The notes beneath the pieces were generated by a model that was not told the DNA's origin, made no database searches, and worked only from the letters and a program-made list of their open reading frames with translations. The translations under genes were made by a program, and so were the position numbers. 52,168 nt of DNA. It comes from an uncultured Candidatus Saccharibacteria bacterium. Lineage in GTDB: Bacteria > Patescibacteriota > Minisyncoccia > Phycocordibacterales > UBA9973. Numbering within the stretch: position 1 is the stretch's first letter; the number at the start of each line of letters is the position of its first letter. This document shows, one piece after another, positions 4,686-50,750 of this stretch. The stretch lies in contig CAYVZI010000002.1 in assembly GCA_964456475.1 (NCBI GenBank), positions 52,659-104,826 of the forward strand, written 5' to 3'.

Positions 4686-4810
4686 TAAAATTTTCAGAAA
4701 CAGATGCAGTTCGAGGCGCAAGCGAGACTTGTGACCAAAATGTACTCCTGGTACATTGCGGGAACAAACGAGAGAAGCAACAATGAAATGCGCTGTTTAT
4801 GGAAATTTTA
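4686..4810 (+). repeat. 125-bp structured dispersed repeat, copy 1 (overlaps pgk stop codon)
   Basis: Gap-free alignment to 47376-47500 (24 mismatches in 125) and 29556-29680; terminal arms taaaattttca/tggaaatttta. Confidence 0.9.
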
Positions 4811-5923
4811 CTTTAGTGCTTTAATTCCGGGAAGAGTCCCTTTTGCCATAAATTCTAGTGCGGCGCCGCCGGCAGTAGAGACGAAGGTAAATTTGTCGGC
4901 CATTTTCTTTTTTTCAACAAGCACTGCCGTATCTCCCCCGCCAATAATTGTCTCTCCTTTTGCCGAAGCGAGGAGTTTGATCACCTCTTCTGTTCCTTTT
5001 GTATATCCGCCTTCGTACCAGCCCATCGGTCCATTCCAAACGATGAGCTTAGCTTTCTTGATGAGGCCAGCAAGCGCATCAATACTTGGAAGTCCGATAT
5101 CAAAGATGGATTCAGTATGACGAATATCGTGTATAGAAACTGTCTGCTTTTTTCCGTCTCTTTCAACCACAACGCTCTCTGGAACTATCAGCTTTTTGTT
5201 TTTCAAAAGAGTTTTGAGAAGTGGTGCTTCTGAATCTACTTTTGATTTTCCAACGTCAATTCCTTCTGCACGTAGAAAATCATCCGCCAAACCTCCGCCA
5301 ATAAATACATGGTCCGCTTCCTTGAGATATTTTTTTAAAAGTGGAATCTTGGTTTCTGCTTTTACTCCGCCTTGGATAAAAAGAAATGGGTGCTTCGGTT
5401 TGAGAAGCTTTGAAAGTTCTTTCACTTCGCGCTCAAACTGGAATCCAGCATATGAAGGAAGGAGCTTCGGCAAAAGCACGGTTGAAGCATCCTCTCGGTG
5501 AGAGACAGGAAATGCCTCATTCACATAGATATCACCGAGCTTGGCGAGTGCAAGAGCAAAAAGCTTGTCTCCATCCTTCTCACCAGCCACACTACGCAAA
5601 TTCTCAAGCATAAGAACATCACCGTTTTTCATATTTCCGACAGCCTTTTGAGCTTCAATACCGGTAATGTCAGTAACGTAACAGAGTGGAAAATACTTTT
5701 TTAGTAACAAAAAAACGGGTTTCAATGTTTCTTCAGGTTCACGACCGATATGACTCACAAGAATTACTTTTGCTCCTTTTTTACGAAGGAAATCAATCGT
5801 TTTCTGAGCAACAGTAATACGTGTAGTATCGAGAACTTTTGTTCCATTCAGTGGAACATTGAAGTCTGTACGTACAATCACTCGTTTTCCTTTGATATTT
5901 TTTAGTTCTTTAACAGATTTCAT
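4808..5923 (-). CDS. pgk: Phosphoglycerate kinase
   Basis: RVIVRTDFNVP, SHIGR, LENLR, YVNEAF..SHR, GGVKAETK, WNGPMG, GGGDT, STAGGAALEF. Confidence 0.97.
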   Translation of the reverse strand: MKSVKELKNIKGKRVIVRTDFNVPLNGTKVLDTTRITVAQKTIDFLRKKGAKVILVSHIGREPEETLKPVFLLLKKYFPLCYVTDITGIEAQKAVGNMKNGDVLMLENLRSVAGEKDGDKLFALALAKLGDIYVNEAFPVSHREDASTVLLPKLLPSYAGFQFEREVKELSKLLKPKHPFLFIQGGVKAETKIPLLKKYLKEADHVFIGGGLADDFLRAEGIDVGKSKVDSEAPLLKTLLKNKKLIVPESVVVERDGKKQTVSIHDIRHTESIFDIGLPSIDALAGLIKKAKLIVWNGPMGWYEGGYTKGTEEVIKLLASAKGETIIGGGDTAVLVEKKKMADKFTFVSTAGGAALEFMAKGTLPGIKALK

Positions 5924-5926
5924 ATA

Positions 5927-6694
5927 CTAGAGCTCATTAGCAGCTTTTAAAATAGAAAGAAACGATTTTGGATTAAGGCTCGCGCGTCCAGGAAGAAGTC
6001 CGTCAACATGACCAGCCGAGAGAAATCCAGATGCACTCTTCTCGTCCACCGATCCTCCATAGAGGATGGTCACTGCTTCAGCATTCGCACCGCCGTACGC
6101 ATCAGTGAGTACTTTTCGAATGTACATATGCATCTCTTGGCAGTCCTCTGGTGTTGCATCACGACGATTCGTCGTCGTAGAAATAGCCCATACTGGCTCA
6201 TATGCAATAACGATTCTTGAAATCATATTCTTCGAAATTCCAATGAGGCATTCTTCAAGCTGAGTTTTTACCGTGCCGAGGTATATCATTCCATGATCAC
6301 GATCACGTTCACCGATACACAAAATCGGTGTAATCCCGACAGCAAGCAATTGCTTGATTTTTTTGTTTATAAATTCATTTGATTCACCAAGTTCACGTCG
6401 TTCTGAATGTCCCACAATACAATACGTTGCTTTCAAACCAGAGAGCATTGATGCTGAGACTTCTCCAGTATATGCACCCTCCTTTTCGGCCGACACATTT
6501 TGGGAAGCAAGTCCGAGTCCCGTAGATTTCAATTTTGAGAGCTCAGACAAGTACACAAAAGGAGCTGCTACTACAGCTTCTACATTCTTGAACGAACCAA
6601 CGCCTTTTTTAATAGCAGTAAACTGTGCACGAGCAAGGGCGACTGTTTTTGGGTTCATCTTCCAGTTACCCACAATGAGTTTTTTCTTTCGCAT
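5927..6694 (-). CDS. tpiA: Triosephosphate isomerase
   Basis: IVGNWKMN, GAYTGEVS, GHSERR, AYEPVWAI, LYGGSV; likely start MRKKK at 6694. Confidence 0.97.
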   Translation of the reverse strand: MRKKKLIVGNWKMNPKTVALARAQFTAIKKGVGSFKNVEAVVAAPFVYLSELSKLKSTGLGLASQNVSAEKEGAYTGEVSASMLSGLKATYCIVGHSERRELGESNEFINKKIKQLLAVGITPILCIGERDRDHGMIYLGTVKTQLEECLIGISKNMISRIVIAYEPVWAISTTTNRRDATPEDCQEMHMYIRKVLTDAYGGANAEAVTILYGGSVDEKSASGFLSAGHVDGLLPGRASLNPKSFLSILKAANEL

Positions 6695-6718: not shown

Positions 6719-6800
6719 AACTCTAAATACCAAATTCTAAGTCCTAAAAATGCCGACCCGAATCCTTTTTAGAGTTTAGTATTTAGGTTCTAGAGTTTGA
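6719..6800. repeat. Inverted 7-mer array without ORF (empty element)
   Basis: ctctaaa/attctaa/gtcctaa units facing ttagagt/ttagtat/ttaggtt units across a short spacer. Confidence 0.75.
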
Positions 6801-6802
6801 TT

Positions 6803-8611
6803 TTATTGTGTTTCCTTCCACGAATCCACAGTATACGAACCTGAAGGGCCAAGTACAAAGTTCACGTTCGCAAGACCGGTATCATAGGTCAAAGTTGCGC
6901 TATTAGACATGCTAATCCTGTAAGCTACAGCCTCCTTGGCACCAGCTGTGTTAGAAAAAGTGATTGTTCCATTTGGTGCTACAAGAATAACCGTACCTGC
7001 ACTGTTTGCAACATTAATAGCCGAAGATGACGATGAGGTGGTGAGCATCATCATATAACTACCCGTAGTACCTGACCCAGCGAATGCAGCCGAGTTTGAT
7101 GTTGAAACAGTACCATCAGAGATAATCATTCCACTTCCCGTTCCATATCCGGACGCGAGCTTCACGATAGCATTATTTGAGAGAACAATATTCCCCGTCA
7201 CCCAAAGCGTTCCCGACAACGTAAGCACGCCATTGTTACTGACATACAAATCACCAACAATCTTTTTTGGGCCAAGCGTAGCCGCAGAAGTACCAGAGAG
7301 CGAATAGCTACCAGTGAGAGTTCCACCAGCAAGTGCATCCGCCTTCCAGTCAGTTATTTGTGATGTTGAAATCGGAAAATTGAGCGGTGTTGGATCAGCA
7401 AGTGATGTATTACAACTCTTATTGTTTCCGCTTCCTGTTTGACAATAGAGGCTTCCTGCAATCGTTGACCCAGTGACTGTATGAGCCCAGGCATTACCTA
7501 CACTACCGGTTCCAATTGTCATTCCGCTAATAGTAGAGTTTACCCCACCGAGCGAGAGTTTGAAAAATCCATCGAGTCCAGATGGGCTCGTATTGTTCCA
7601 AGTGGTCGTTCCATATGTTCCCGTCTTTCCAAGACCGCTGGCATACCCAGCACTGTTTGCGCCCCAAATATAATAGTTTGAGGCATTTGCACTTCCATCG
7701 AGCACGACCCAGTATGTCGTACCGGCAGTAAGCGTCACGTTCGGAGAAAGTGCAACCGTTGCCCAACCATATGATGTAGTCACGGTCGATGCAGAAATTG
7801 TCCCCGTAGTAAGAGAACTTGATGAGGGCTTTCCAGAGGAATCACTGGTGATTCGCACAGTGAGATTACTCGGACTGCCCACTTTTTTTATATACACTTC
7901 CACCTGTGTGGCAGTATCAGAAATACTTGTTTGAAAACTCTGAGCTGCATCTTGTGTAGCAGAAGCATTCGCAAACGTAATCGAATGAGAGGGTGTACCC
8001 GTATCGTTGACTTGGTCAACGACTTGAGTGCTACGATCAGCGGCAAAAGCCGCTCCGGTGATTGAAGCACTCCCCGTTCCTGAAATATCACCATTCGCAT
8101 ATACATTACCGATAATCTGAGAAGAATTTGCCATAGAGAGTCCTCCATTCCCTACCTGCATACCATAGTTAAAAGAAACACCGGCTCCAGTGGTAACGAC
8201 GACATCGACAGCTCGATTGAAATCAGAGACATCACCAATACTGGTAATTTGTTTTTGTCCTCCGCTGAGATTGGTGATTGTCGTGACCGTCGAAGAACTT
8301 CCGAGCACAAGAGTAACACTCGAAGGTAGCGTCAAATTATTTTTCAAACGGTAGAATGCATCTTCGGCTCCAGACTCAGACAAAAAATAACTCTGTCGTG
8401 AAGTAAGAGCATCATTCGCAATTTTATACTCGCGAGCTGCCGGACCAGTGAGACCAAGAACAACAAGTACTGATGCCAAAATAAAGAAAATAAGCGAAAT
8501 CATCATCGCCGCTCCGCGCTCGTGGTTTGGTATTAGGTGTTTGGTGTTTGGTGATAGCTTATCCAAAACCATTTTTATTTTTTCTATGAAATTATTTTTT
8601 GAGTTTTGCAT
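6803..8611 (-). CDS. PilX/GspK-like minor pilin with large Ser/Thr/Gly-rich passenger (candidate adhesin)
   Basis: ERG|AAMMISLIF pilin-like helix lacking E5, FLSESGAEDA motif, last gene of the minor-pilin cluster, beta-rich C-terminus. Confidence 0.75.
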   Translation of the reverse strand: MQNSKNNFIEKIKMVLDKLSPNTKHLIPNHERGAAMMISLIFFILASVLVVLGLTGPAAREYKIANDALTSRQSYFLSESGAEDAFYRLKNNLTLPSSVTLVLGSSSTVTTITNLSGGQKQITSIGDVSDFNRAVDVVVTTGAGVSFNYGMQVGNGGLSMANSSQIIGNVYANGDISGTGSASITGAAFAADRSTQVVDQVNDTGTPSHSITFANASATQDAAQSFQTSISDTATQVEVYIKKVGSPSNLTVRITSDSSGKPSSSSLTTGTISASTVTTSYGWATVALSPNVTLTAGTTYWVVLDGSANASNYYIWGANSAGYASGLGKTGTYGTTTWNNTSPSGLDGFFKLSLGGVNSTISGMTIGTGSVGNAWAHTVTGSTIAGSLYCQTGSGNNKSCNTSLADPTPLNFPISTSQITDWKADALAGGTLTGSYSLSGTSAATLGPKKIVGDLYVSNNGVLTLSGTLWVTGNIVLSNNAIVKLASGYGTGSGMIISDGTVSTSNSAAFAGSGTTGSYMMMLTTSSSSSAINVANSAGTVILVAPNGTITFSNTAGAKEAVAYRISMSNSATLTYDTGLANVNFVLGPSGSYTVDSWKETQ

Positions 8612-10261: not shown

Positions 10262-11476
10262 TTATCCAATCGCACTTACCAAGCCATACATTGGTGAAAT
10301 CATCGAAATAGCGAAGAACCCTACAGCTCCACCGATAAACACCATGAGCACTGGCTCAATAATAGTCGACATATCCTTGGTCTTTGCGTCGACTTCCTCT
10401 TCATAATAAATCGCAATATCAGAAAGCATCTGTGAAAGCGCACCTGTCTCCTCCCCCACAGCAATCATTTCACCCATCATTACAGGGTACAAGTCTTGAT
10501 TGTCTTTAAACACGGAAGAAAGAGATGAACCTTTTTGCACGGCGAGATTAGCTTTTTCAATAACTTCTCGATAGTGCACATTTTGCAAAACTTCCTTGGT
10601 GATTGTGAGAGCACGAGTCATCTCCACACCAGAAGTAAGGAGCGTGGAGAGCGTTCGTGCCGTACGAGCTGTATTTACTTCTTTAATAAGCATACCTATT
10701 GCTGGAAGTTTGAGTGTTAGGGCATCAATTTTTGGTTTCAATTTTTCAGACCGGAAGATATACATTCCTCCGACGACAATCACGCCGACGACACCCAAAA
10801 ATATGAATGGGTGATTTGCCACCGAATCCGAAATGAAGATGACAAACTTGGTTGATGCAGGCAAAGCGGTTCCGAATTCTTTAAAAATCTTGGTGAGTGT
10901 CGGCACCACAAACATGAGCATAAGTGTAGCGATAATAAAGATAGCCGCGACGATAATTGACGGATACATCATCGCACTTTTAATTTTGCGATTGAGGTCG
11001 TATGTCTTTTGTAAATTGACACCGATATCACCGAGTGTGTTGGATAGATTTCCTGACTCTTCTCCGGCACGCACCATTGAGACCATTAGCGGACTGAATA
11101 CTTTTGGAAATTTTGCAAAACCATCCGAAAGAGTCCCACCCTTGTCTATTGTAGAAAGCAGTCCAACAAACACATCCTCGAGAGCAGGATTTTTATTTTG
11201 CTTCTTGAGTACCTCAATTGCACGAAAGAGCGGCAGTCCCGCCTTGAGCATTCCGGCAAGATTATGTGTAAAAATTATTTTTTCATGCAACTTTACTTTG
11301 CCAAAAAACTTGGCGAATTTGTCCGAAAAACTCACTTCTGTTTTGATTTCAGTCAGCGAAAGAGGCAAGATCCCTCGATCGCGCAATTCTTTGGCTGCAG
11401 TAAACCGACTCACTGAGTCAATCACGCCTTGTAAAGTTTTTCCTTGCGCATCACGCGCAGTATAAGTAAATTGCAT
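10262..11476 (-). CDS. pilC: Type IV pilus platform protein PilC (T2SS F family)
   Basis: LAGMLKAGLPL, AGEESGNL, KIKSAMMYP, VGEETGAL, IIEPVLMV. Confidence 0.96.
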   Translation of the reverse strand: MQFTYTARDAQGKTLQGVIDSVSRFTAAKELRDRGILPLSLTEIKTEVSFSDKFAKFFGKVKLHEKIIFTHNLAGMLKAGLPLFRAIEVLKKQNKNPALEDVFVGLLSTIDKGGTLSDGFAKFPKVFSPLMVSMVRAGEESGNLSNTLGDIGVNLQKTYDLNRKIKSAMMYPSIIVAAIFIIATLMLMFVVPTLTKIFKEFGTALPASTKFVIFISDSVANHPFIFLGVVGVIVVGGMYIFRSEKLKPKIDALTLKLPAIGMLIKEVNTARTARTLSTLLTSGVEMTRALTITKEVLQNVHYREVIEKANLAVQKGSSLSSVFKDNQDLYPVMMGEMIAVGEETGALSQMLSDIAIYYEEEVDAKTKDMSTIIEPVLMVFIGGAVGFFAISMISPMYGLVSAIG

Positions 11477-11480
11477 AAAT

Positions 11481-11901
11481 AAAATCTAAGTCCTAAATTC
11501 TAAAACCTAAAGAGAACTGGCTGTTTTTGTTACTATCGCACCAAGAATTTTCATCAATTCGGTATTTTCTTGTACTATAATGTTTTTTTCATTCAAAAAA
11601 TTCCCTTCTTCAATTAAATCAAGCCAAAATATGGACTCTTTGGCTTCCTTTCGACAAATTTTGACCCTCATCAAAAAATCTTTTCTACTCAACGATTCCG
11701 CGGCTTCAATAAAGTTGGCTCCGATTGATGCAGACGATCGAATTAATTGTTTAGAATATTCCAGATTACTTTGAGAGCGCGGAATCAATTTTAAAAAATC
11801 ACGTACTGTTTTTGCAAATACTCTTGTCCTATCTTCTAGTTTATATTGTTTAGGCTCGGTTTGCATTCTTTAGAATTTAGAACTTAGGATTTAGAATTTT
11901 G
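11481..11901 (-). mobile_element. Four-helix-bundle cassette flanked by inverted 7-mer arrays, between pilB and pilC
   Basis: Left aatctaa-gtcctaa-attctaa-aacctaa; right ttagaat-ttagaac-ttaggat-ttagaat; mobility is inferred only. Confidence 0.55.
11507..11866 (-). CDS. Four helix bundle protein (TIGR02436 / 23S rRNA IVS-protein-like)
   Basis: KQLIRSSASIGANFIEA, SRKDFLMRVKICRKEAKESIFWL. Confidence 0.92.
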   Translation of the reverse strand: MQTEPKQYKLEDRTRVFAKTVRDFLKLIPRSQSNLEYSKQLIRSSASIGANFIEAAESLSRKDFLMRVKICRKEAKESIFWLDLIEEGNFLNEKNIIVQENTELMKILGAIVTKTASSL

Positions 11902-20937: not shown

Positions 20938-21528
20938 ATGCTTATCCCAACAGTTATAGAAAAATCACAATTCGGCGAGCGTGCGTACGACATCTACTCA
21001 CGCCTTCTTCGCGAACGCATCATCTTCCTTGGTGGCCCTATCGATGACCATATGGCCAATCTGGTCATCGCTCAACTCCTTTTCCTTGAAAACGAAGACC
21101 CAAAAAAGGACATCAAACTCTACATCAACTCTCCAGGAGGATCAGTCAGTTCCACACTCGCCATGGTTGACACGATGAATCACATCAAATGCGATGTCTC
21201 AACAGTGTGTGTAGGTATGGCCGCTTCTGGTGGCGCACTTCTACTTTCAGCAGGAACTAAAGGCAAGCGTTTTATTCTCCCTCATGCCGAGGTAATGATT
21301 CACCAAGTTCTCTCTGGTGTCGAAGGTCAAGGAACCGATATTGAAATCGGCGCGCGTCATATCCTCCGAACCAAAGCAACCCTCAACCAAATACTTGCAA
21401 AAAATACCGGCAAGACCGCCGCTCAAGTAGAAAAAGATACAGAACGAGACAATTGGATGTCTCCTGATGAAGCAAAAAAATACGGCATCGTCGACGAAAT
21501 CATCGTCAAATCAAAATCTGGAAAATAG
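20938..21528 (+). CDS. clpP: ATP-dependent Clp protease proteolytic subunit
   Basis: [46 protein letters not shown]. Confidence 0.98.
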
Positions 21529-21543
21529 TTCTCTCGTGTCACA

Positions 21544-21575
21544 CAAAAACAAACGCCCAATGGCGTTTGTTTTTG
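21544..21575 (+). terminator. Intrinsic terminator after clpP
   Basis: caaaaacaaacgcc-caat-ggcgtttgtttttg. Confidence 0.8.
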
Positions 21576-21596
21576 TATTGGGGTAAAATCGGAAGT

Positions 21597-23879
21597 ATGA
21601 ATGAGATGGAAAAAATGCTTCTCAGTGGCAATACAACACAAAAGAATATTAATGGAAGCCTTTTAGAAAAAGAAAGGGTAACTCCTATAGCTGAATCAAA
21701 AAACGAGTACAATGAACAAAAAGAACAGCTTCTTGCGTATCTTGAAAAAAAAGAGATTGTTGTATCAAAAAACCCGTACGTCCTAGATATCGACAAATTT
21801 AAAAATATAGTAAAATCCAGAATACAAATAAAGCAGAAATTTTTGAATCAGGATGAAATTATAAATGCCTTAGTTGGAGTAAAGTGCATATCAAAGGCAG
21901 ATATAGAATCCAACAAAACCGAAGATTCCACTTTAATTATAGAAAAACCCCTGCTTAATATACCCACAAATATTGAAGACGTCTTGAAGGGAAACATTGC
22001 TAATCCTGGCTATTTAAATCCTTGGGAGATACAAGAGAATACAAAATGGGATATACGCATTCCTCTTAGCGAAGGCAAAAATACAACCTTGGCGGAAATT
22101 TTTATCGCTCAAAAACTTAATGAACTTGGTGCACACAGAAACAATATGGGCGATTTGGAAATTATCGATCCAGCCAACAACAAACCAAAAAAGATTTCTG
22201 GATATCTTTTTCAAAAGTTAATCAAAGAACTCGGCGGAAAAGAACTGCGTATCCGAACAACACTACCCAATGAAAAAGAATACCAAACAGGCTTTGGATC
22301 AAGGGCTTTTTCTGAAAAAGTTTTACCCAATCTTTTTTCATCAGGAATTTTAAAAAACGAGGATTTTAAAACTATAGGCGGAAGTGCAGTCAGCGAATTA
22401 TACGCCATAAACGAACGGAAATTGGACCCCAAAAGTCCATACATAGGACTATCTGGTAAATATGGTTTTACACGATACTATCTCGGTAGAGACAAAATTG
22501 TCGGAACAAAAACTGAAACAAACGAGTTTATGAGCGTTATACAACTAGATCCAAATACCTTCGGCATTGTCGAAAAACTCCCTGGCAGAAATAGCCGACT
22601 CTTATACACATTCGACGGATTAAATGAGCAAGAAATAGCAAATCTACGAAGCAAGACTTCTGCTAATCTTTTATCAAAAAGTATCGAACCCACAGAAGCA
22701 AAGATTTCTGCATATTCCCTGACCGGTGGCGCAGAAATGAAAAAAAGAATCAGAGAATACAAAATCACAGAATTATTTCCTCAAAAAAAAGATGAGACTA
22801 GTGAAGTGTACGCCACACGACTATCTAATCTTAGTGATACGGATTATGTTTTAAATAATTTTAGAGAGTTTTTTAAGGACGCAAATATTGGGGTCCATAA
22901 CCTGTCTTGGATAGATCAACTTTCCATTGCTAATGCGATTTTGGAAGAAAAAAACAAAAAAAGGCTGGTTTCCTTCGCGTCAGATTATAAACTTGATGGA
23001 GTCAGAACATTTCTTTCCCTCGAACACGGTGGCAAAGAAATGAGTGACAAAATCCTTACGCTTGGTGAAAAATTACCGAGGCAAAACGCTGAATTGTTAT
23101 TCAAAAAATATGGTGAAATCATTGACGAGGTCAACAATGTGGCTGAATACTTTTCTGTATCACTCGCAAAAAATGCCACCCCAGAAATCATCGAACAAAC
23201 AAAGGAACAACTCCTCATTAAAGGCAAAGAAATGCTCGCCTACTATGCCGACCATGCAAAGACATGCGCCGAACAAGAGTGTGTTGATCTCGGCACTGAG
23301 CTCGAGACACGTCTAAAAGATTTAAAAGCATCAGTTGTATTACTTGGTTCTGCAGTCAAAACACTCGTCGAACGCGGTGAGTTCAATCTGCAAGATTTGA
23401 AAGATATCGAAATCTCATACGACGAGCATGGCTTGCAAGAAAAAGACAAAGCGGCAATCAGTGCAATGTCACACGAGAACACAAAACAGTATCCTGAAAA
23501 ACTTCGCGATTATTGGCGTGGTACCGCCGAGCAAGCACTCGAACATCCTGCTCCGGGCGAAACATTCATCAGTGTCAAATACCAAGGCGAAATCGTAGTT
23601 GTCATGCGTGTGATTCCACAAAACGACGGGTCTTTTTATGGTGCATCATTCAACGTCAATCCAAACATTCGTGGGTCACGCATCGGCACCGAACTCATGA
23701 AAGAGGTCATCGACAACTATACGAAACAAGGAGATTTTGTTGCAGATTGTTATGAGCACAATCCGATGCTCGAAAACTACACGGGCAAATTCGGTTTTGA
23801 AATAATCGACACCATCGAAAACTATCACGACACTGGTGCAACAATCAAAAAAATTATTCGTCGAAAGCAGGCGAACTAG
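21597..23879 (+). CDS. Large hypothetical protein with C-terminal GNAT-like acetyltransferase domain
   Basis: YGASFNVNPNIRGSRIGTELM acetyl-CoA binding motif A, then NPMLENYTGKFGFE motif B; N-terminal ~600 aa unassigned. Confidence 0.7.
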   Translation: MNEMEKMLLSGNTTQKNINGSLLEKERVTPIAESKNEYNEQKEQLLAYLEKKEIVVSKNPYVLDIDKFKNIVKSRIQIKQKFLNQDEIINALVGVKCISKADIESNKTEDSTLIIEKPLLNIPTNIEDVLKGNIANPGYLNPWEIQENTKWDIRIPLSEGKNTTLAEIFIAQKLNELGAHRNNMGDLEIIDPANNKPKKISGYLFQKLIKELGGKELRIRTTLPNEKEYQTGFGSRAFSEKVLPNLFSSGILKNEDFKTIGGSAVSELYAINERKLDPKSPYIGLSGKYGFTRYYLGRDKIVGTKTETNEFMSVIQLDPNTFGIVEKLPGRNSRLLYTFDGLNEQEIANLRSKTSANLLSKSIEPTEAKISAYSLTGGAEMKKRIREYKITELFPQKKDETSEVYATRLSNLSDTDYVLNNFREFFKDANIGVHNLSWIDQLSIANAILEEKNKKRLVSFASDYKLDGVRTFLSLEHGGKEMSDKILTLGEKLPRQNAELLFKKYGEIIDEVNNVAEYFSVSLAKNATPEIIEQTKEQLLIKGKEMLAYYADHAKTCAEQECVDLGTELETRLKDLKASVVLLGSAVKTLVERGEFNLQDLKDIEISYDEHGLQEKDKAAISAMSHENTKQYPEKLRDYWRGTAEQALEHPAPGETFISVKYQGEIVVVMRVIPQNDGSFYGASFNVNPNIRGSRIGTELMKEVIDNYTKQGDFVADCYEHNPMLENYTGKFGFEIIDTIENYHDTGATIKKIIRRKQAN

Positions 23880-24654
23880 ACTTTTTTTCTTCTCCAGCAA
23901 CCGGAGTAGAATTTTTCCAATATCCGTCAAAAATAATTTTCATAGTTTCTGCAATTTCTTTGTCTTCAATAATAAGACCCACAATTTTTTCTTTTGAAAA
24001 TGTAAGCATACTCGTCTTGTTATCGTACGTCAAAAGTGCGGTTGGAAATGATTTGACTCCAGAAGCTGTTCGAAACGAAGTGAGTTCAGTTCCCTTTTTT
24101 GCATACTCAGCATTGAAGTCATTATCGGAGACAATCATGCGTTTCTGTATTCCATTCGCAACTCTCTTCTTCAGATGTCGTACTGTCTCCTCAGGAAACT
24201 GGTTCATTGCAAGCTGCATGTCTGTAATCTGGCGAATTTCCTTGTCTACAGAAGGAAGATCCCCCGTTATTTTCAGTATGGCTTCTTCTCCTTCATAAAA
24301 CTGCACGTTTGGCTTACCGGCGATCAGATTGTATTTCGAAGCAAGCGATCCGAGTGAATGCTCGAGCATATCTTTGGCAAGGGCCAATTCTTTTTCCTTA
24401 CGTTCAATATTGCCCATAAGAAGGGACGGATGTCCGGCCACGAACACAGCCACGCTTCCCTCTCCACCCCGCTTCTCTACTAGACCGATAGCCTCAAGCT
24501 GTTCCAAGACCTTGTACGTAAGGCCTCTTTTGATGCCAGTCCAGTCGGCAAGTGCACTTGCTCTCTGTGGCCCCTTGTCCAATAGAGCCTCGTACGTAAG
24601 TGCCTGCTCTTCAGAGAGTCCAGCTTCTATAAGTAGATTGTTGCTGTTTTGCAT
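23854..24654 (-). CDS. TrmB-family HTH transcriptional regulator (copy 1)
   Basis: AGLSEEQALTYEALL..G..ASALA..TGIKRGLTYKVLEQL..IGLV wHTH; PNVQFYEG linker. Confidence 0.88.
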   Translation of the reverse strand: MQNSNNLLIEAGLSEEQALTYEALLDKGPQRASALADWTGIKRGLTYKVLEQLEAIGLVEKRGGEGSVAVFVAGHPSLLMGNIERKEKELALAKDMLEHSLGSLASKYNLIAGKPNVQFYEGEEAILKITGDLPSVDKEIRQITDMQLAMNQFPEETVRHLKKRVANGIQKRMIVSDNDFNAEYAKKGTELTSFRTASGVKSFPTALLTYDNKTSMLTFSKEKIVGLIIEDKEIAETMKIIFDGYWKNSTPVAGEEKKSSSPAFDE

Positions 24655-24676
24655 ATGAATATCGTATCATATTCGT

Positions 24677-24700
24677 CTTTGTCATACAAACATGACAAAG
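24677..24700. promoter_or_regulatory. Palindromic operator candidate upstream of TrmB copy 1
   Basis: ctttgtcat-N6-atgacaaag perfect 9-bp arms. Confidence 0.55.
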
Positions 24701-24767
24701 TGGATAACCTAATTATCCTTATTTATAAAGCTTTTTTAGCGATTTTAGATTAAATAATTATGTTATG

Positions 24768-24796
24768 TTGACAAATCATAATATAAATGCTATAGT
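24768..24796 (+). promoter_or_regulatory. Strong sigma70 promoter driving orphan array 1
   Basis: TTGACA-N17-TATAGT with extended -10 TG. Confidence 0.8.
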
Positions 24797-25390
24797 ATAA
24801 GCAAGAAAGTTCATTGATTAGGTGATTCGAGAAAAGTGCGGAGCAGTGAATGGTCAGGGGAGCCAAAAATCGCCATAACTAAGAACTGCTACGAGGAGAG
24901 CTTCTCTCGCATCATGTTTCCAAGATGGAGGCACAAGAATACAGGCTGGAAACCCATATTACTTCTGCCGTTACCCCATCACATCGGACACCAAACAGAT
25001 CCACCAAGGATTCGTTAGGACATCCAGTGAAAGAAAGAGACTAACCCCCTTTTGCTTTCACAAATGTCTTTGCGAAGGAGCTTCGTAACAAAGAGGAGAG
25101 AGAACTACTTTGAAACGAAGAGTATAGATGAAGGAGAGAGACCTGCACTATAGCAAAGAAGTGAACCTTAAAAACTAAACATGCCCGGAGACAATACTCG
25201 CGAAAGCGTATTATTTACTCCGGCAGATTCTGCACAAAACACAAACCTGTCATTCCGGAGTACACATCCGGAATCCATGCGTATTTTGTTGTGTGTAGAT
25301 ATGTTCCGTAAAGAAATTCGCGGAGTGCATAGTTGTTTTAGTTCTTTCAGAACGCCAGCATGGTTTTCTGAAAGAACTAAAACAAAAAAT

Positions 25391-25579
25391 ATGGAAAAAA
25401 TAATATTCGTAATACTGTTTCTAGTTATAGGGATAGTATTTACTATAGCCTCAATCATGGGGCTATACAAAATATGTAATAGGGTGCCCAGCAAGGCACC
25501 ACCATTCCCCGAAATATACGGGGAAACGAAAATTGGCCGAATTCTGGCCAATATAATATCCCTTGTTATTGGGATATAG
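25391..25579 (+). CDS. Small membrane protein, array 1 ORF1
   Basis: MEKIIFVILFLVIGIVFTIASIMGLYK..., ATG follows a 20-bp stem and A-rich tract. Confidence 0.6.
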   Translation: MEKIIFVILFLVIGIVFTIASIMGLYKICNRVPSKAPPFPEIYGETKIGRILANIISLVIGI

Positions 25580-25680
25580 GCGTTCATTGTTTGCTTTAAT
25601 ATTTAGCAGTATAGCAATGAACATTTGTCCCCGGATGACACAAACTGCCGGCGGTCTGATTTCTGCGAGAAGAAATCGAT

Positions 25681-25763
25681 GGGTAAAAAGGGTAAACATA
25701 TTCCCCGATTGGAAACAATCGGGGCCTTATTCAGCTCACGAAATTTTCGTTGGCTGATTGGGA
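25681..25763 (+). repeat. Intergenic module A (partial: hairpins 1 and 2)
   Basis: ccccgattg/caatcgggg then cttattcagctcacgaa..tcgttggctgattggga. Confidence 0.85.
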
Positions 25764-25859
25764 GGAAAGCCAAAATGTGCAAGCCTGTCGTGTACCGCGC
25801 CGACATAAAAAAAGCGGGATAGTAATACGTGTGCGAAGATCAGTACCACACTTACTCGA

Positions 25860-26690
25860 ATGGAAAGCAACTCGATATATTGCTTTTGCGGCGCCATGTC
25901 CAAGAAAAATACATGGCAACAATTCCGAGGCTCTCATATCGGGAGGTCAAACCAAACCCAGGCTCGGCTGGTGATTTTATTTATGACACAGTCATCAAAT
26001 ATTTTCGGAAAAAAAGTAGTTATTAGTAAAAAATCCCAAGAAATTGGGAGATATGTTAATTACAAAATTCAAATCGGGAGCGACGACCCGATTTTTGTTT
26101 CGAAGGATGCCGCCCGACAAGGACGGTGGTCCTTCGACACAAAAAGTTTTTTCAAAGGGGGTTCTTCCCCTTTGGACCAAGACGAATTGGAGATCATTCT
26201 CCAATTCGTAAAATTCTTAATCGTCTTCCAAGCGTATGAGTATACGCTTGGAACAAGGAGGAATTTCCTCCTGTCAGTAGAGACCACTGGGGTCGAAAAG
26301 GCCTCCGACGGTTACCATGACTTTGACTACCGAAAGGAAGTTAAGCTGGAGTCGGTAAACTCCAATTGGGGCAGCCGCTCCGCAATGAGTATCTACGCCC
26401 AATTCGACGGTCATGTGACCAACGAAGGAGGCAATCAATTGTTGGAGCGGTATTATTCGGCTCCAATACCTTTTATCAATATGACGCTTCAGGCAACTGA
26501 AGAGTCAATGATACGAAGGCTCGGTGAGCCAATCGGTCAAATGGAAATCTTTAACCCTCGGCCGAGGGAAAAGGAATACATTGAAAACTTCGGCACGGCC
26601 GAAGTAATTGATGGAAACAACCCGCTGGCAACGGCGTGGTTTGTTTTAAAAATTTTGCCAACATACTATATGTTGGCAAATATGAGGTAG
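25860..26690 (+). CDS. Hypothetical protein, array 1 ORF2 (start may be 25986)
   Basis: 276-aa open frame; family not recognised. Confidence 0.6.
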   Translation: MESNSIYCFCGAMSKKNTWQQFRGSHIGRSNQTQARLVILFMTQSSNIFGKKVVISKKSQEIGRYVNYKIQIGSDDPIFVSKDAARQGRWSFDTKSFFKGGSSPLDQDELEIILQFVKFLIVFQAYEYTLGTRRNFLLSVETTGVEKASDGYHDFDYRKEVKLESVNSNWGSRSAMSIYAQFDGHVTNEGGNQLLERYYSAPIPFINMTLQATEESMIRRLGEPIGQMEIFNPRPREKEYIENFGTAEVIDGNNPLATAWFVLKILPTYYMLANMR

Positions 26691-26846
26691 GGGTTTAGGG
26701 TTACAAAAAAAATGGCTCCGATTTTCTAATCGGAGCCCTTATTCAGTTCACGAAGCAATTCGTTGGCTGATAGGGATTCATACCTAGAATTTTGGTTCAC
26801 TTAGTTTTTCAATTTTGGAAAGTTAAGTGAACCAAAATTTAATAAA
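26691..26846 (+). repeat. Intergenic module B (hairpins 1, 2, 3)
   Basis: ggctccgatt/aatcggagcc; cttattcag..ctgatagg; aattttggttcactta/taagtgaaccaaaatt directly before ATG. Confidence 0.9.
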
Positions 26847-27071
26847 ATGTTGATCAGAAAAATCCACCTGTATAAGGTGGAACACCGCTACCACCATAGT
26901 GTAGCGGGATATTTAAATGGGCCGAGATCCTATTGGACAGCCCTGAAACCCGACCTCAGCCGGGTGTACGTAGTTGAGGAAAAAAACGACACCCTCGTAA
27001 GAGGGTGGGTTTGGTTTGTATTTGGGGCACTAGCCTCAGGCGCTGTTTGCTTTTTGACAGCAAACATCTAA
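26847..27071 (+). CDS. Small protein with C-terminal TM helix, array 1 ORF3
   Basis: 74 aa, ends WVWFVFGALASGAVCFLTANI. Confidence 0.6.
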   Translation: MLIRKIHLYKVEHRYHHSVAGYLNGPRSYWTALKPDLSRVYVVEEKNDTLVRGWVWFVFGALASGAVCFLTANI

Positions 27072-27162
27072 CCATCTGTCACCGAATGACATTAACTGCC
27101 GGCGCGTATTCTGAAATTGCGAGAAGTGAGTAAGAAAAGTACAAACTCAAAAATTTATTGTG

Positions 27163-27696
27163 ATGAACAAGAAAATTTTTAGTTTTGATGCCGAGACCAA
27201 CGGTCTTTGGGGCCGGGCGTTTTCGATTGCCGCTATCGTCTATGACGAGAACGGTGCGGAGACGATCCGCTTCATTGGCCGGTGTCCAATCGAAGGCGAA
27301 ACAAACAGCTGGGTAGCTGAAAATGTTTTGCCAAAGATGATGGACATCGCCGAGTCTCACGGCTCGTATGATGAACTGCTAAAAGCTTTTGCGGATTTTT
27401 ACAAATCCAACAAAGCCGATGCAGATATCATTGTGCATATGGGCGTGCCTGTGGAGTCAACACTTCTCAAGGATACTCATAGCCGTGGGTATATCGGCGA
27501 TTGGGACGGTCCGTTCCCCCTCATCGACATTGCAGGCAATCTGCAACAAGCCGGTGAGAATCCTACTTCAGTCGACGAATACGTCGCCAAGTATGGATTG
27601 GAGGTGCGCGATTTTGGCACGACACACAACCCGCTGTATGACAGCGAAGTTGCTGCAGTAGTGTATCGCCACCTTCAGGGACGGATTACTCAGTAA
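27163..27696 (+). CDS. DnaQ-like DEDDh 3'-5' exonuclease
   Basis: FSFDAETNG ExoI, PLIDI, THNPLYD ExoIII. Confidence 0.8.
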   Translation: MNKKIFSFDAETNGLWGRAFSIAAIVYDENGAETIRFIGRCPIEGETNSWVAENVLPKMMDIAESHGSYDELLKAFADFYKSNKADADIIVHMGVPVESTLLKDTHSRGYIGDWDGPFPLIDIAGNLQQAGENPTSVDEYVAKYGLEVRDFGTTHNPLYDSEVAAVVYRHLQGRITQ

Positions 27697-27762
27697 TCGG
27701 TCAGGCATTTGAGTGAGACTCCGAGCATGATACCAGCTTGGGAACAGAAGGTATCACAATAA

Positions 27763-27920
27763 GGGGTTACGGGTTATCGTATTTCCCCGATTGAGTAATC
27801 AATCGGGGCCTTATTCAGCCCACGAAATTTTCGTGGGCTGATAGGGATTGCTTACTTTCTGGTTGTTTTAGTTTTTTCAGAATGCCTAATTGGTTCTTTG
27901 AGAAAACTAAAACAACAAAA
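27763..27920 (+). repeat. Intergenic module C (hairpins 1, 2, 3)
   Basis: ccccgattg/caatcgggg; cttattcagcccacgaa/ttcgtgggctgatagg; gttgttttagtttt/aaaactaaaacaac before ATG. Confidence 0.9.
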
Positions 27921-28202
27921 ATGAAAGAAAGATCAATGAGCGAACTTGAATTCGCTCAGATAGTTTTTGAAAATGGGCTCTTTCTAGAGAGTCCATTAAA
28001 TTCAAAATCCTTTATGGCAGAAAATGCCACAGAGGAGAGCAAGGTGACTGAGAAACATGGGTGCTTCTCGTTTATGGGATCAATATACTTGATCTCATTC
28101 TCGGTTTCCTACGGGGAACCGAGTAAATCATGCAATCCCAGCAGTGGGTATTGCAAGGAGACAAAAATAATATCCGAGATTACCCGGATTATTTTACCCT
28201 AA
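27921..28202 (+). CDS. Hypothetical protein, array 1 ORF5
   Basis: 93-aa ORF starting MKERSMSELEF after module C. Confidence 0.55.
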   Translation: MKERSMSELEFAQIVFENGLFLESPLNSKSFMAENATEESKVTEKHGCFSFMGSIYLISFSVSYGEPSKSCNPSSGYCKETKIISEITRIILP

Positions 28203-28358
28203 GGGTTACTATGGTTTAAAAAACGGCCGAACAGAATATCGTTCGGCCTCTTATTCAGTCCGCGAAGCAATTCGTTGGCTGATAGGAATTCATACCTATA
28301 ATTTTAGTTCACTTAGTTTTTCAAGTTTGGAATATTAAGTGAACTAAAATTCAAAAAT
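28203..28358 (+). repeat. Intergenic module D (hairpins 1, 2, 3)
   Basis: ggccgaac/gttcggcc; cttattcag..ctgatagg; aattttagttcactta/taagtgaactaaaatt before ATG; closely similar to module B. Confidence 0.9.
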
Positions 28359-28544
28359 ATGAAAAACACAAAGCAACTTAAAAACGCGGCTTACAATGCT
28401 GCGTATGAAATTATTTCCTCAAGTTATTTTTTTGAGGGAACAAAAATTTTGGCTATGAAAGTAGCCAAAGATACAGGTTACAGGTATTGGTACAGCCAAT
28501 ACTTAAAAGCCTACTACGATTGCAGGCGAGAAAATGCCTCGTAG
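28359..28544 (+). CDS. Small Tyr-rich hypothetical protein, array 1 ORF6
   Basis: 61-aa ORF immediately after module D, followed by gggttgggtta and a terminator-like hairpin. Confidence 0.55.
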   Translation: MKNTKQLKNAAYNAAYEIISSSYFFEGTKILAMKVAKDTGYRYWYSQYLKAYYDCRRENAS

Positions 28545-28761
28545 GGTTGGGTTAATATATTTGAGGGGAAGTAGTTCCCCTCTCTTCACTCGCGCTTCTT
28601 CTGAAGCTGTGTGTCATTCCACAAAAGTTTCCTAAAGGAAACTTTTGTGGAACAAATCTCTCTCCTCGCACATAGTATCAATCTATATTCAAGGAGCGCG
28701 AATGAAGAGAAGTATAAAACAATAGAAAAAAAGCCGTTGCGATTCGCAACGGCTTTTTGTT

Positions 28762-29304
28762 TTATAAAAATATTTTTACGTGGTGCCAAATGGCAAAAGG
28801 ATTCATTGCGCAGTGCCAGAGCCAAACATCGACATTTTCGCCTGTATCATTTTTTGTCGTAAACAAACGAGCATGCATGGTGACCGACACATACTCATCA
28901 TGAAATGATGTATAGCCAATTATGTTCGGCAATCCATACCTTAGCAAATCTCCTTTCCCGTTTCCTGGTTGAGCCCTACCGAGGACACTTGCTCGCCAAA
29001 TAATTGATTCGTAGTTCGGAAAATGCGTTCCAAAATTCACAGCGCCCGTGTTCCAATCTTTTATTTGTCCACAAATCTCTTTGTCACTCATTACTTTTTC
29101 GTCATACAAGGTACCGTGCAGGTCTTCAGTTTCCATTATTTTGAACGGTGTGCGTTTGTCTACAAAACTTGCAAAGTCTTCACTGAGACTAAAAATGTGT
29201 GCTGGAAATAGCTTCTCGGCATTCCAAGGCTCAAAAACAGAAGGTATGTGGGTGATTTTTCCATTTTTCCCTGCGTTTATAACAACACTCGATTCATTGA
29301 TCAT
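28762..29304 (-). CDS. Hypothetical protein
   Basis: 180-aa ORF with protein-like composition; family not recognised. Confidence 0.6.
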   Translation of the reverse strand: MINESSVVINAGKNGKITHIPSVFEPWNAEKLFPAHIFSLSEDFASFVDKRTPFKIMETEDLHGTLYDEKVMSDKEICGQIKDWNTGAVNFGTHFPNYESIIWRASVLGRAQPGNGKGDLLRYGLPNIIGYTSFHDEYVSVTMHARLFTTKNDTGENVDVWLWHCAMNPFAIWHHVKIFL

Positions 29305-29555: not shown

Positions 29556-29680
29556 TAGAAATTTCAGAGACGAGTACAGTTCAAGGCGTAAGCGAGGCTT
29601 GCGACCAAGGTGTAGTAATCCTACTCCGCGGGAGCAAACGAGCGAAACAACGAAGAAATGTGCCGTATATGAAATTTCTA
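29556..29680 (+). repeat. 125-bp structured dispersed repeat, copy 2 (rny leader)
   Basis: Perfect 11-bp terminal arms tagaaatttca/tgaaatttcta; colinear with the other copies. Confidence 0.9.
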
Positions 29681-37081: not shown

Positions 37082-37152
37082 TCGGGGTGCCGGGAATCGA
37101 ACCCGGCCCTCTTGTTCCCAAAACAAGTATACTACCGATATACTACACCCCG
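37082..37152 (-). tRNA. tRNA-Pro(TGG)
   Basis: cggggtg/caccccg acceptor, cttgt-tt-TGG-ga-acaag, ccggg-ttcgatt-cccgg. Confidence 0.95.
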
Positions 37153-37196
37153 ACGGAACCCTCGTCTACCTGTTATTTTTTAAAAAAGAAATTCTC

Positions 37197-37233
37197 CCCA
37201 AAACAAGTATACTACCGATATACTACGCCCCGA
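37197..37233 (-). pseudogene. Duplicated 5' half of tRNA-Pro
   Basis: 37 bp with 1 mismatch to 37117-37153; breaks at the anticodon loop. Confidence 0.85.
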
Positions 37234-47375: not shown

Positions 47376-47500
47376 TAGAACTTACAGAGGCGGATGCAGT
47401 TCACGACGCGAGCGAGGCTTGTGACTAAAATGTACATGGGGTACATTGCGGGAACAAACGAGCGAGGCAACAAAGAAATGCGCCGCATATGGAAGTTCTA
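47376..47500 (+). repeat. 125-bp structured dispersed repeat, copy 3 (pnp leader)
   Basis: Arms tagaacttaca/tggaagttcta; ends 8 nt before the pnp ATG. Confidence 0.9.
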
Positions 47501-50677: not shown

Positions 50678-50750
50678 AAACTCTAATTTCTAAGTCCTAA
50701 ACTCTAAAAATACGGATTCTATAGAACTTAGATTTTAGTGTTTAGAGTTT
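50678..50750. repeat. Inverted 7-mer array without ORF (empty element)
   Basis: Shares tctaagtcctaaa with the arms at 6737 and 11485. Confidence 0.75.

Follow-up and report, generated by a model that had tools for sequence, protein, structure and literature searches.

The 52,168-nucleotide stretch analysed here, referred to as the window in the following (positions 52,659 to 104,826 of contig CAYVZI010000002.1, assembly GCA_964456475.1, from an uncultured Candidatus Saccharibacteria bacterium), contains an array of small genes, or cassettes, separated by recurring spacer modules of two or three hairpins. We consider it probable that this array is a single read-through operon whose modules process and insulate the RNA, and whose repeats also recombine to turn over the cassettes. 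The best reading of each module is that of a unit for the processing and insulation of RNA, in which a 3′ hairpin (hairpin 1) is followed by a cleavage element (hairpin 2) and a 5′ hairpin (hairpin 3). The evidence comes from the anatomy of the modules, the covariation and strand bias of hairpin 2 at the RNA level, the synteny of the locus, the polymorphism between strains with its breakpoints, and hammerhead ribozymes in the very slot of hairpin 2. An earlier note on this DNA had proposed either a gene-capture or shuffling array of integron-like layout or a standardised cassette for expression and processing; the latter idea is supported by the hammerheads of sister arrays together with the strand-specific covariation of hairpin 2.

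The window is cellular DNA, encoding four tRNAs, RNase Y, ClpP and trigger factor. The array is flanked on one side by the divergent gene of a TrmB-family regulator (23854–24654, minus strand; Pfam PF01978, E = 6.6e-11; 168 homologues) and on the other by a 180-aa gene, followed by RNase Y. The regulator serves as a syntenic anchor: its homologues led us to nine further Paceibacteria contigs (annotated in databases as Candidatus Paceibacteria or Paceibacterota), each with a co-oriented array of small genes, and on every contig examined the array adjoins the regulator gene. Arrays of this kind occupy the same locus, usually near RNase Y, in at least nine such contigs.

Hairpin 2 and the hammerheads in its place

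In 14 copies from three loci, hairpin 2 without exception folds better on the sense than on the antisense strand, by 3.5–10 kcal/mol. With a covariance model, we retrieved 25 copies from nine loci (E ≤ 1e-4). In their alignment, which was fitted to the model and therefore leans towards that structure (a hand alignment was also made), 94.1% of the cells are paired, two-sided changes affect 10 of the 17 pairs, and G·U is a frequent pair; these values were not attained in any of 500 shuffles, and slid controls pair at 36–46%. As G·U pairs are so abundant, the structure works only on the sense strand. The earlier note had read compensatory changes in the stems of the modules; for hairpin 2, the larger alignment (25 copies, nine loci) shows covariation that is strand-specific.

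The base of the hairpin, which includes a bulged U, is conserved as YCCUUAUUCAG...YUGAUWGGGR (CCUUAUUCAG...CUGAUAGGG). The upper stem varies freely in sequence, with covariation, and ranges from 11 to ~30 bp; in the related locus L016, it consists of A/U pairs throughout. With a 17-bp consensus stem (up to ~30 bp), a single bulge, an intercistronic position and a location on the transcribed strand, hairpin 2 fits the geometry of an RNase III site, an imperfect duplex of ~20 bp. Pattern scans yielded one real locus among genome contigs (L001) and one among metagenome contigs (L004), which together represent a high-GC clade. Two further matches in metagenome contigs, L002 (within a coding region) and L003 (a terminator), were rejected as chance matches, and the same pattern was not found in the viral contigs of IMG/VR, where the sole match (L006) is a chance one in coding sequence. 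In relatives, hairpins 1–2 also occur outside the arrays, between ordinary co-directional genes; hairpin 2 has only four such copies in ~330 kb of flanking DNA, all of them between co-directional genes.

In four sister arrays, five modules contain a type III hammerhead in the exact slot of hairpin 2 (two in L012, one each in L022, L024 and L026). Hammerheads of this type are recognized by a three-way junction, the core CUGAnGA ... GAAA and the cleavage triplet NUH. The Rfam model Hammerhead_3 (RF00008) matches L012 at 6409–6463 (40 bits) and 7149–7215 (37.9 bits), L022 at 8237–8292 (42.4 bits) and L024 at 5141–5195 (42.8 bits). For the two matches in L012, the cmscan alignment shows the full core (GUC, CUGAUGAG or CUGACGAG, CGAAAC); the hammerhead of L026 was read by eye. 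The context is always GGGTTA, hairpin 1, hammerhead, hairpin 3 (or a shorter hairpin) and ATG. Since this is the grammar of the window modules, hairpin 2 and the hammerhead are positional substitutes. Among 43 internal spacers of nine arrays, 21 have hairpin 2 and 4 a hammerhead; the spacers with neither are mostly shorter than 100 nt or lie at overlapping genes, with five exceptions of 179–220 nt. We rejected the idea that hairpin 2 is itself a degenerate hammerhead: its core reads CUGAUAG, it has neither GAAA nor a stem II, and H17 would need to be G. The role of bacterial self-cleaving ribozymes is still largely open (PMC6765202); for clustered hammerheads around single genes or short blocks of inconstant identity, the processing of long transcripts has been proposed (PMC3088659).

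Hairpin 2 also occurs within coding sequence. In three relatives (L001, L004 and L011), the 3′ end of a small basic gene of the ArfA-like/DUF7230 type contains it. The family membership of this gene is borderline (26.3 bits for DUF7230 against a cut-off of 27); one relative of it has a weak Pfam match to ArfA (E = 3e-4) and bears the JGI name ArfA. Other members of the family have a GC hairpin at the equivalent place. We found this family on Candidate Phyla Radiation (CPR) and phage-like contigs (L001 3710–3901 and L004 2828–3028, both minus strand; L011 152–322; L010 3167–3346; L007 8001–8168), in every member with a hairpin inside the 3′ end of the open reading frame (ORF). To our knowledge, no alternative rescue factor has been described in its lineage. 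The position of this hairpin suggests, by analogy, an arfA/brfA-style control via non-stop mRNA, which in arfA and brfA arises from a hairpin or terminator within the ORF (PMC8012679). Hairpin 2 in the ORF ends of L001, L004 and L011 would mirror the hairpin for RNase III in arfA and the brfA terminator, a hint, again by analogy, that it could be a site of RNA end formation. The comparison differs for the window, from which the gene is absent: a hidden Markov model of five family members found no match in any of the six frames, and the similarity of one module (A, see below) to the ArfA-like protein was rejected, as it reflects just the peptide that hairpin 2 encodes.

The operon, its cassettes and their turnover

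The six ORFs of the array are co-oriented on the plus strand, downstream of a conserved promoter that points into the array (24768–24796, plus strand; TTGACA, 17 nt, TGcTATAGT with an extended −10). At 11 of 12 matches, this is the top promoter-like site of the region, and both hexamers are kept in all six leaders that we aligned. In this alignment, the promoter is preceded by a palindrome, TGTCATACAAACATGACA (24680–24697), and followed by ~530 nt of conserved non-coding sequence. The palindrome adjoins the regulator start, is conserved in six genera and is a candidate operator for the TrmB-like regulator. The leader (24803–25332, plus strand) has no convincing ORF, is 68% identical to that of L016 and looks like an undescribed structured RNA; it has no match to an Rfam family at E ≤ 1. 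Several blocks of it are conserved in L017, one of which, of 29 nt (AGTGAATGGTCAGGGGAGCCAAAAATCGCC, 24846–24874), is identical, despite the regulator there being only 65% identical.

At its other end, the array closes with a terminal element E (28544–28720, plus strand; fold z = −11.4). It opens with GGGTTGGGTTAA, continues with a GC hairpin (28563–28582) and forms a long-range stem (28582–28596 with 28695–28709) around a variable hairpin and the tract UCUCUCUCCUC (28657–28667). Its identity is 92% to L012 and 73% to L016, with the inner hairpin replaced. As a side observation, the ~130-nt structure has its inner hairpin swapped between genera around an invariant single-stranded tract, AUCUCUCUCCUCG. 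A bidirectional intrinsic terminator (28728–28758; 14-bp stem, T-runs on both strands) follows. Hairpins 2 and 3, the leader and element E match no family of Rfam 15 at the gathering threshold; at E ≤ 1, there were only chance-level matches to microRNAs and small RNAs (E 0.02–1). Given the conserved promoter and leader, the terminal element and the closing terminator, the region is most likely a single operon of small accessory genes, transcribed as one unit.

By direct reading of positions 24800–29200, we find all four modules (A–D), the lone hairpin 3 and the terminal partial module where the earlier note had placed them. The pattern CTTATTCAG..GGCTGAT occurs four times in the window, always within the array and on the plus strand, against an expectation of zero (100 shuffles). 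Modules B (26690–26846), C (27763–27920) and D (28203–28358) are complete and, like all modules, on the plus strand. Module B comprises GGGGTTTAGGGTTA (26690–26703), hairpin 1 (26714–26737), hairpin 2 (26736–26777) and hairpin 3 (26788–26839), followed by an A-rich run and ATG; module C opens with GGGGTTACGGGTTA and continues with its hairpins at 27785–27808, 27808–27848 and 27862–27915; module D opens with GGGTTACTATGGTTTA, with the hairpins at 28225–28248, 28248–28289 and 28300–28351. Module A (25681–25764) has GGGTAAAAAGGGTAAAC, hairpin 1 (25703–25724) and hairpin 2 (25724–25764), but no hairpin 3, and is followed by GGAGG. Lastly, a lone hairpin 3 (25333–25385, plus strand; 25-nt arms, 92% complementary; z = −8.6) precedes the first ORF. 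The G-rich motif at the module opening recurs as described earlier, but rather than following the stop codon, it overlaps it (26690–26703, 27763–27776, 28203–28218, 28544–28555). The terminator score of hairpin 1 is mainly antisense, its tail on the sense strand being CTTATTC. All four copies of hairpin 3 have inverted-repeat arms of 25 nt and fold z-scores of −7.7 to −8.6, and the compensatory changes reported for them are correct by direct reading (G-C in B versus A-T in D, and C-G at 25333 versus T-A in C). The mosaic character of the modules is likewise borne out by repeat finding: B and D share hairpins 2–3 (26738–26860 versus 28250–28372; 123 nt, 86%), A and C share hairpins 1–2 (25713–25763 versus 27797–27847; 92%), and hairpin 3 of C matches 25332–25400 at 80%.

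The earlier note had overlooked a second spacer element (type II), which follows ORF1 (25580–25685, plus strand; core 25643–25653) and ORF3 (27040–27145, plus strand, overlapping the end of ORF3); a third copy lies in L012 (8560–8640, minus strand). Copy 1 consists of a small hairpin, followed by ..ATGACA..AACTGCCGGCG..TGCGAGAAG. The element was rejected as a structured RNA on account of its fold z-scores of −2.1 and −0.4. It follows two membrane-protein cassettes, and in one frame (HLSP[D/N]D[T/I]NCRR) three of its five codon differences are silent, so that it may, judging from the codons, be a short coding relic and not an RNA element. Sister arrays hold further conserved spacer elements (L024 4738–5100, minus strand; L026 7852–7960 and 6004–6090/7232–7330), among them CCTGTCTCGATGGCATAACAGGG...GCCTTCATCGAGA, which is common to both arrays, and a ~90-nt element repeated behind two stop codons in L026. 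In L024, the ATG of an uncalled small ORF for a zinc ribbon falls within the 3′ arm of hairpin 3.

The six cassette ORFs have no Pfam match and, as the earlier note had stated, are unrelated to one another (best mutual E about 1); they are not all orphans, though, since ORF4 has 910 homologues in Patescibacteria. All are on the plus strand. ORF1 (25391–25579; 62 aa) is hydrophobic and has no homologue that we could find, as is the case for ORF5 (27921–28202; 93 aa). ORF2 (25983–26690; 235 aa) is a near-orphan, with only five homologue clusters among 1.84 billion representatives and no record in an exact protein look-up; all five clusters align from residue ~42 of a 276-aa ORF, which makes 25983 the most likely start. 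ORF3 (26847–27071) encodes 74 aa and ORF6 (28359–28544) 61 aa. ORF4 (27163–27696; 177 aa) belongs to a widespread and highly conserved Patescibacteria family of ~175 aa, with 63–92% identity among the 120 matches listed and no Pfam domain. Its product resembles DEDD-type exonucleases: profiles match phrog_192 (DNA polymerase exonuclease subunit; E = 4.9e-6) and phrog_2259 (RNase H; E = 6.8e-5), and the motifs FDAETNGL and HNPLYD would fit a DEDDh exonuclease. PADLOC found no defence system among the window cassettes, and two genes of the high-GC arrays, a and b, are absent from the window.

The idea of a shuffling array is supported by L012, which has highly similar flanks, yet carries a different set of genes, with the breaks falling at modules. 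The regulators of the two loci are 98% identical, and the left flank (window 20938–25354, 4.4 kb) is 98.3% identical up to 25354, where homology ends inside the lone hairpin 3. It returns at 85% between 26708 and 27105, from hairpin 1 of module B through ORF3, the sole cassette common to both (78% at the amino acid and 85% at the nucleotide level), and resumes at 91–92% from 28542 onward, at the terminal GGGTT motif. The other cassettes of L012 encode a 77-aa membrane protein, a STIV_B116-like protein, proteins of 184 and 189 aa and a radical SAM enzyme. Between these two strains, the cassette content differs almost entirely, and the polymorphism is bounded by modules. Within the high-GC pair, L001 and L004 share the first two genes and the last gene, while the middle genes differ, and the left breakpoint lies ~20 nt past hairpin 2. 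The ORF4 family is found in fourth position in the window, in first position in L024 and L026, and not at all in L012. Four further groups (L017/L018/L019, L022/L023, L020/L021 and L024/L025) are identical contigs and hence uninformative for strain comparison, and L005 has the very sequence of the window. The cassettes are probably turned over via recombination between the repeated modules, which we take to be homologous.

The leader also shows complementarity to the modules and to element E. A hairpin at 25012–25076 (plus strand; 24 pairs, 13 with compensatory changes) exposes the loop CUAACCC (25041–25047), invariant as YUAACCC and found in all eight AT-rich arrays. The loop is the exact complement of the GGGUUA tag behind the cassette stop codons, and by direct reading the complementarity reaches 9–12 nt in some modules. 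On the sense strand of array spacers, GGGTTA is 22-fold enriched (25 in 7.7 kb versus 48 in 332 kb; p = 6e-23); on the antisense strand, it does not occur there. Likewise, the purine tract GAGGAGAGAGA of the leader (25093–25103, plus strand), conserved in eight of eight AT-rich arrays, complements the tract UCUCUCUCCUC of element E. This pyrimidine tract is present in the seven AT-rich arrays whose end is covered (L024 stops before the array end and was left out of the count), though shortened to CTCTCTCC in L020. In the leader of the high-GC clade, a complement of that clade's spacer motif GGCAACAGAA was not found. These complementarities would allow for a leader-guided RNA system, in which the UAACCC loop pairs with the GGGUUA tags and GAGGAGAGAGA with UCUCUCUCCUC, the leader co-ordinates the processing, stability or termination of the cassette messages, and hairpin 2, in place of the hammerheads, either cleaves itself as a new motif or is recognized by an endonuclease specific to the lineage. 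We hold this to be rather unlikely. The pairing of leader and tag would be loosely comparable to that between the trans-activating RNA (tracrRNA) and the repeats of clustered regularly interspaced short palindromic repeats (CRISPR). A shufflon-like DNA inversion between TAACCC and GGGTTA was rejected, as the cassettes are co-oriented throughout ten arrays.

Several other features lie outside the array. An unrelated 125-nt repeat occurs at 4686–4810, 29556–29680 and 47376–47500 (74–81% identity; no Rfam match), each time just upstream of a plus-strand gene. The repeat folds into a long, imperfect hairpin whose ends are inverted repeats (TAGAAATTTCAGA...TATGAAATTTCTA), and this hairpin is more stable on the plus strand. 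As L012 lacks precisely the copy that stands ahead of RNase Y, the repeat resembles a miniature inverted-repeat transposable element (MITE) and was recently mobile. The 3′ part of a tRNA-Pro is duplicated 80 nt away (37112–37153 versus 37192–37233; 93%), a scar of the type left by tRNA-gene integration. The motif TCTAAGTCCTAAA at the start-proximal ends of several genes (6725–6748, 11474–11511, 50678–50701) may be one that this organism uses for promoters or for translation initiation. Opposite window position ~20270, L012 (1498–6786, reverse complement) has ~5 kb of extra sequence, which encodes two Na+/H+ exchangers and a second regulator of the TrmB/MarR type.

Processing and insulation among other readings

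If the modules process and insulate RNA, transcription would start at the promoter (24768–24796), run through the ~530-nt leader and, by presumed read-through, all cassettes, and end at the terminal element and the terminator. Hairpin 1, a GC hairpin with a poor U-tract, would act as a leaky terminator and, once cleavage has occurred, would protect the upstream message as its 3′ end. Hairpin 2 would be the element that is cleaved or recognized, in the position that the hammerheads occupy in sister arrays; the putative cutting agent would be RNase III as a first guess, then RNase Y or another nuclease, and then self-cleavage. Hairpin 3 (20–25 bp, AT-rich) would become the 5′ structure of the downstream message, ahead of an A-rich stretch, which has no Shine-Dalgarno sequence, and the ATG. 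The outcome would be one message per gene or short gene block, with standard ends on each. At the same time, the similarity of the repeated modules would enable homologous recombination to delete, replace and reorder cassettes, and this would account for both the mosaic modules and the differences between strains.

A number of points weigh against this reading. That hairpin 2 is cut is purely something that we infer, and its base is conserved in sequence across genera, which would be unusual for a plain RNase III site and could mark the binding site of a non-nucleolytic protein. The hammerhead scores of 37.9–42.8 bits all fall under the Rfam gathering score of 48.5 bits, and the window itself has no hammerhead match in Rfam at E ≤ 1. 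Hairpin 3 is missing from module A and, together with the GGGTTA tag, from the high-GC clade (L001, L004); the three hairpins are therefore not an obligate unit. Modules B and D contain promoter-like sequences (TTGGCT-16-TATAAT/TAGAAT, 9–10 of 12 matches), and some cassettes might have promoters of their own. Finally, only one close strain pair is informative.

Among the alternatives, it is unlikely, in our estimate, that hairpin 2 stays uncleaved and serves as the binding site of a regulatory protein or as a cis-acting control element (for translation, antitermination at hairpin 1 or stabilization), with the hammerheads doing another job. The conservation of the base strands (UUAUUCAG / CUGAUAGGG) and of the bulged U across genera that differ by ~15% in G+C is what a site recognized by a protein would typically show. 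The Shine-Dalgarno sequence shares bases with the 3′ base strand in some copies, and ordinary genes are preceded by hairpins 1–2 as well. However, hairpin 2 and the hammerhead replace each other exactly in an otherwise identical module grammar, and hairpin 2 is found in the 3′ ends of ArfA-like ORFs, a gene family with a known logic of RNA 3′-end formation (PMC8012679).

Unlikely, too, is an organization like that of the promoter(early) stem-loops (PeSLs) of T4-type phages. These combine a promoter and a terminator in stem-loops between the orphan genes of hyperplastic regions, where recombination inserts, deletes and replaces genes (PMC2839356, PMC4122927). Each module would accordingly consist of hairpin 1 as terminator and a promoter, making every cassette a transcription unit of its own; recombination would act between these regulatory cassettes at the DNA level, and hairpins 2–3 would be incidental or part of the 5′ untranslated region. 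The layout and the strain-level replacement of orphans match the description of PeSLs (PMC2839356, PMC4122927), hairpin 1 resembles a terminator, and the promoter-like sites of B and D span the 3′ arm of hairpin 2. Yet such sites are not above chance in this region (17 versus 10.4 ± 3.2 expected) and missing from modules A and C, and conservation falls on the paired bases at the foot of hairpin 2 rather than on the promoter hexamers. In L001 and L004, moreover, only 10–25 nt separate hairpin 2 from the ATG. The covariation with its G·U pairs indicates selection on RNA structure, and hammerheads in the hairpin 2 slot are sensible only within a read-through transcript.

The integron-like side of the first idea in the earlier note, a site-specific gene capture, is not supported, and we regard it as very unlikely. 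Single-stranded DNA of the modules would here fold into recombination sites, at which a dedicated recombinase would insert or excise the cassettes. The co-oriented, mostly orphan ORFs between structured repeats, the differing cassette content of close strains and the strand-specific GGGTTA at cassette ends would all fit such a system, and hairpins of single-stranded DNA tolerate G·T pairs, too. Still, no recombinase adjoins any of the ten arrays. The sole tyrosine recombinase of the window, as judged by tblastn with the recombinases of relatives, is an Xer orthologue 16 kb away (44420–45478, minus strand; 67% identical to an Xer-like gene linked to rpsO-pnp in L020 and L022). In attC sites, an inverse core (RYYYAAC) and a core (GTTRRRY) lie at the ends of one imperfect hairpin, of which the bottom strand is folded. 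Here, by direct reading, only one of five G-motifs fits GTTRRRY (GTTGGGT at 28546) and has no partner inverse core; the module is made of three separate hairpins, and it is the sense strand that folds better in each of the 14 copies of hairpin 2 compared. The breakpoints between strains are spread over different parts of the module instead of falling on one fixed nucleotide, hairpins 1–2 also occur outside the arrays, and the ribozymes and the RNA-only covariation point to RNA.

The weakest alternative, selfish repeats (of the repetitive extragenic palindromic or MITE-like type) dispersed in a tolerant intergenic region, has a negligible chance of being correct: hairpins 1–2 do occur at a few other intergenic sites in relatives and the window does hold the unrelated MITE-like element, but all copies point the same way, lie between co-directional genes with a constant spacing to the start codons, have neither terminal inverted repeats nor target duplications, keep the order of their sub-elements across genera and, in the window, are confined to one operon (four of four).

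Significance and relation to known systems

As a syntenic, regulator-linked operon found across CPR genera, the locus provides a recurrent natural setting in which to study the role of bacterial self-cleaving ribozymes. The interchangeability of the hammerhead and an undescribed hairpin within one spacer grammar makes the idea of ribozymes as intercistronic processing and insulation devices directly testable. Guilt-by-association logic, which has led to the pistol, hatchet and twister-sister ribozymes (PMC4604425), here singles out hairpin 2, along with several elements close to it, as candidates for new RNA motifs. Furthermore, repeats of regulatory RNA can double as substrates of recombination, allowing for a rapid turnover of accessory genes in very small genomes, and the modules can be seen as natural analogues of synthetic insulator parts.

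Such a role has precedents. In the early region of phage T7, intercistronic RNase III sites are cut in the polycistronic RNA and leave a 3′ hairpin on the upstream and a structured 5′ end on the downstream message; the engineered insulator RiboJ consists of a hammerhead and a subsequent hairpin before the ribosome-binding site. The role that we propose for the modules is alike, with a presumed cleavage in their case. Unlike typical RNase III sites, hairpin 2 has a base that is conserved in sequence, and unlike both systems, the modules also bound gene turnover.

With integron arrays, the locus shares co-oriented, promoterless and mostly orphan cassettes behind one promoter, structured repeats between them and variation at the strain level. 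Integrons, however, have IntI, the R''/L''-L'/R' architecture and GTTRRRY cores, whereas the elements described here fold on the sense strand, include ribozymes and also occur between ordinary genes. PeSLs are similar in that short conserved stem-loop cassettes lie between orphan genes, and in that gene changes between close relatives are bounded by these cassettes, as in the window versus L012 and L001 versus L004. They are phage-borne, though, and contain a strong early promoter of the sigma-70 type and a terminator that act at the level of DNA and transcription, while the present array resides on a bacterial chromosome and has RNA hairpins and ribozymes inside one operon.

The hammerhead clusters described by Perreault et al. 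(2011; PMC3088659) also have co-oriented genes of inconstant identity between self-cleaving elements, with a proposed processing of the long transcript into mRNAs of gene length, and the sister arrays contain bona fide type III hammerhead cores. Those clusters lie in prophage-like regions, and a phage flavour is present here as well, with the DEDD exonuclease, the STIV_B116-like protein and the radical SAM enzyme. In contrast to them, the modules of the window hold the undescribed hairpin 2 and no hammerhead, and the array is chromosomal, syntenic across CPR genera and free of an integrase. It further stands apart from these clusters by its dedicated promoter, regulator, long leader and terminal element, and by the fixed grammar of its modules: a G-rich tag, a 3′ hairpin, the element and a 5′ hairpin.

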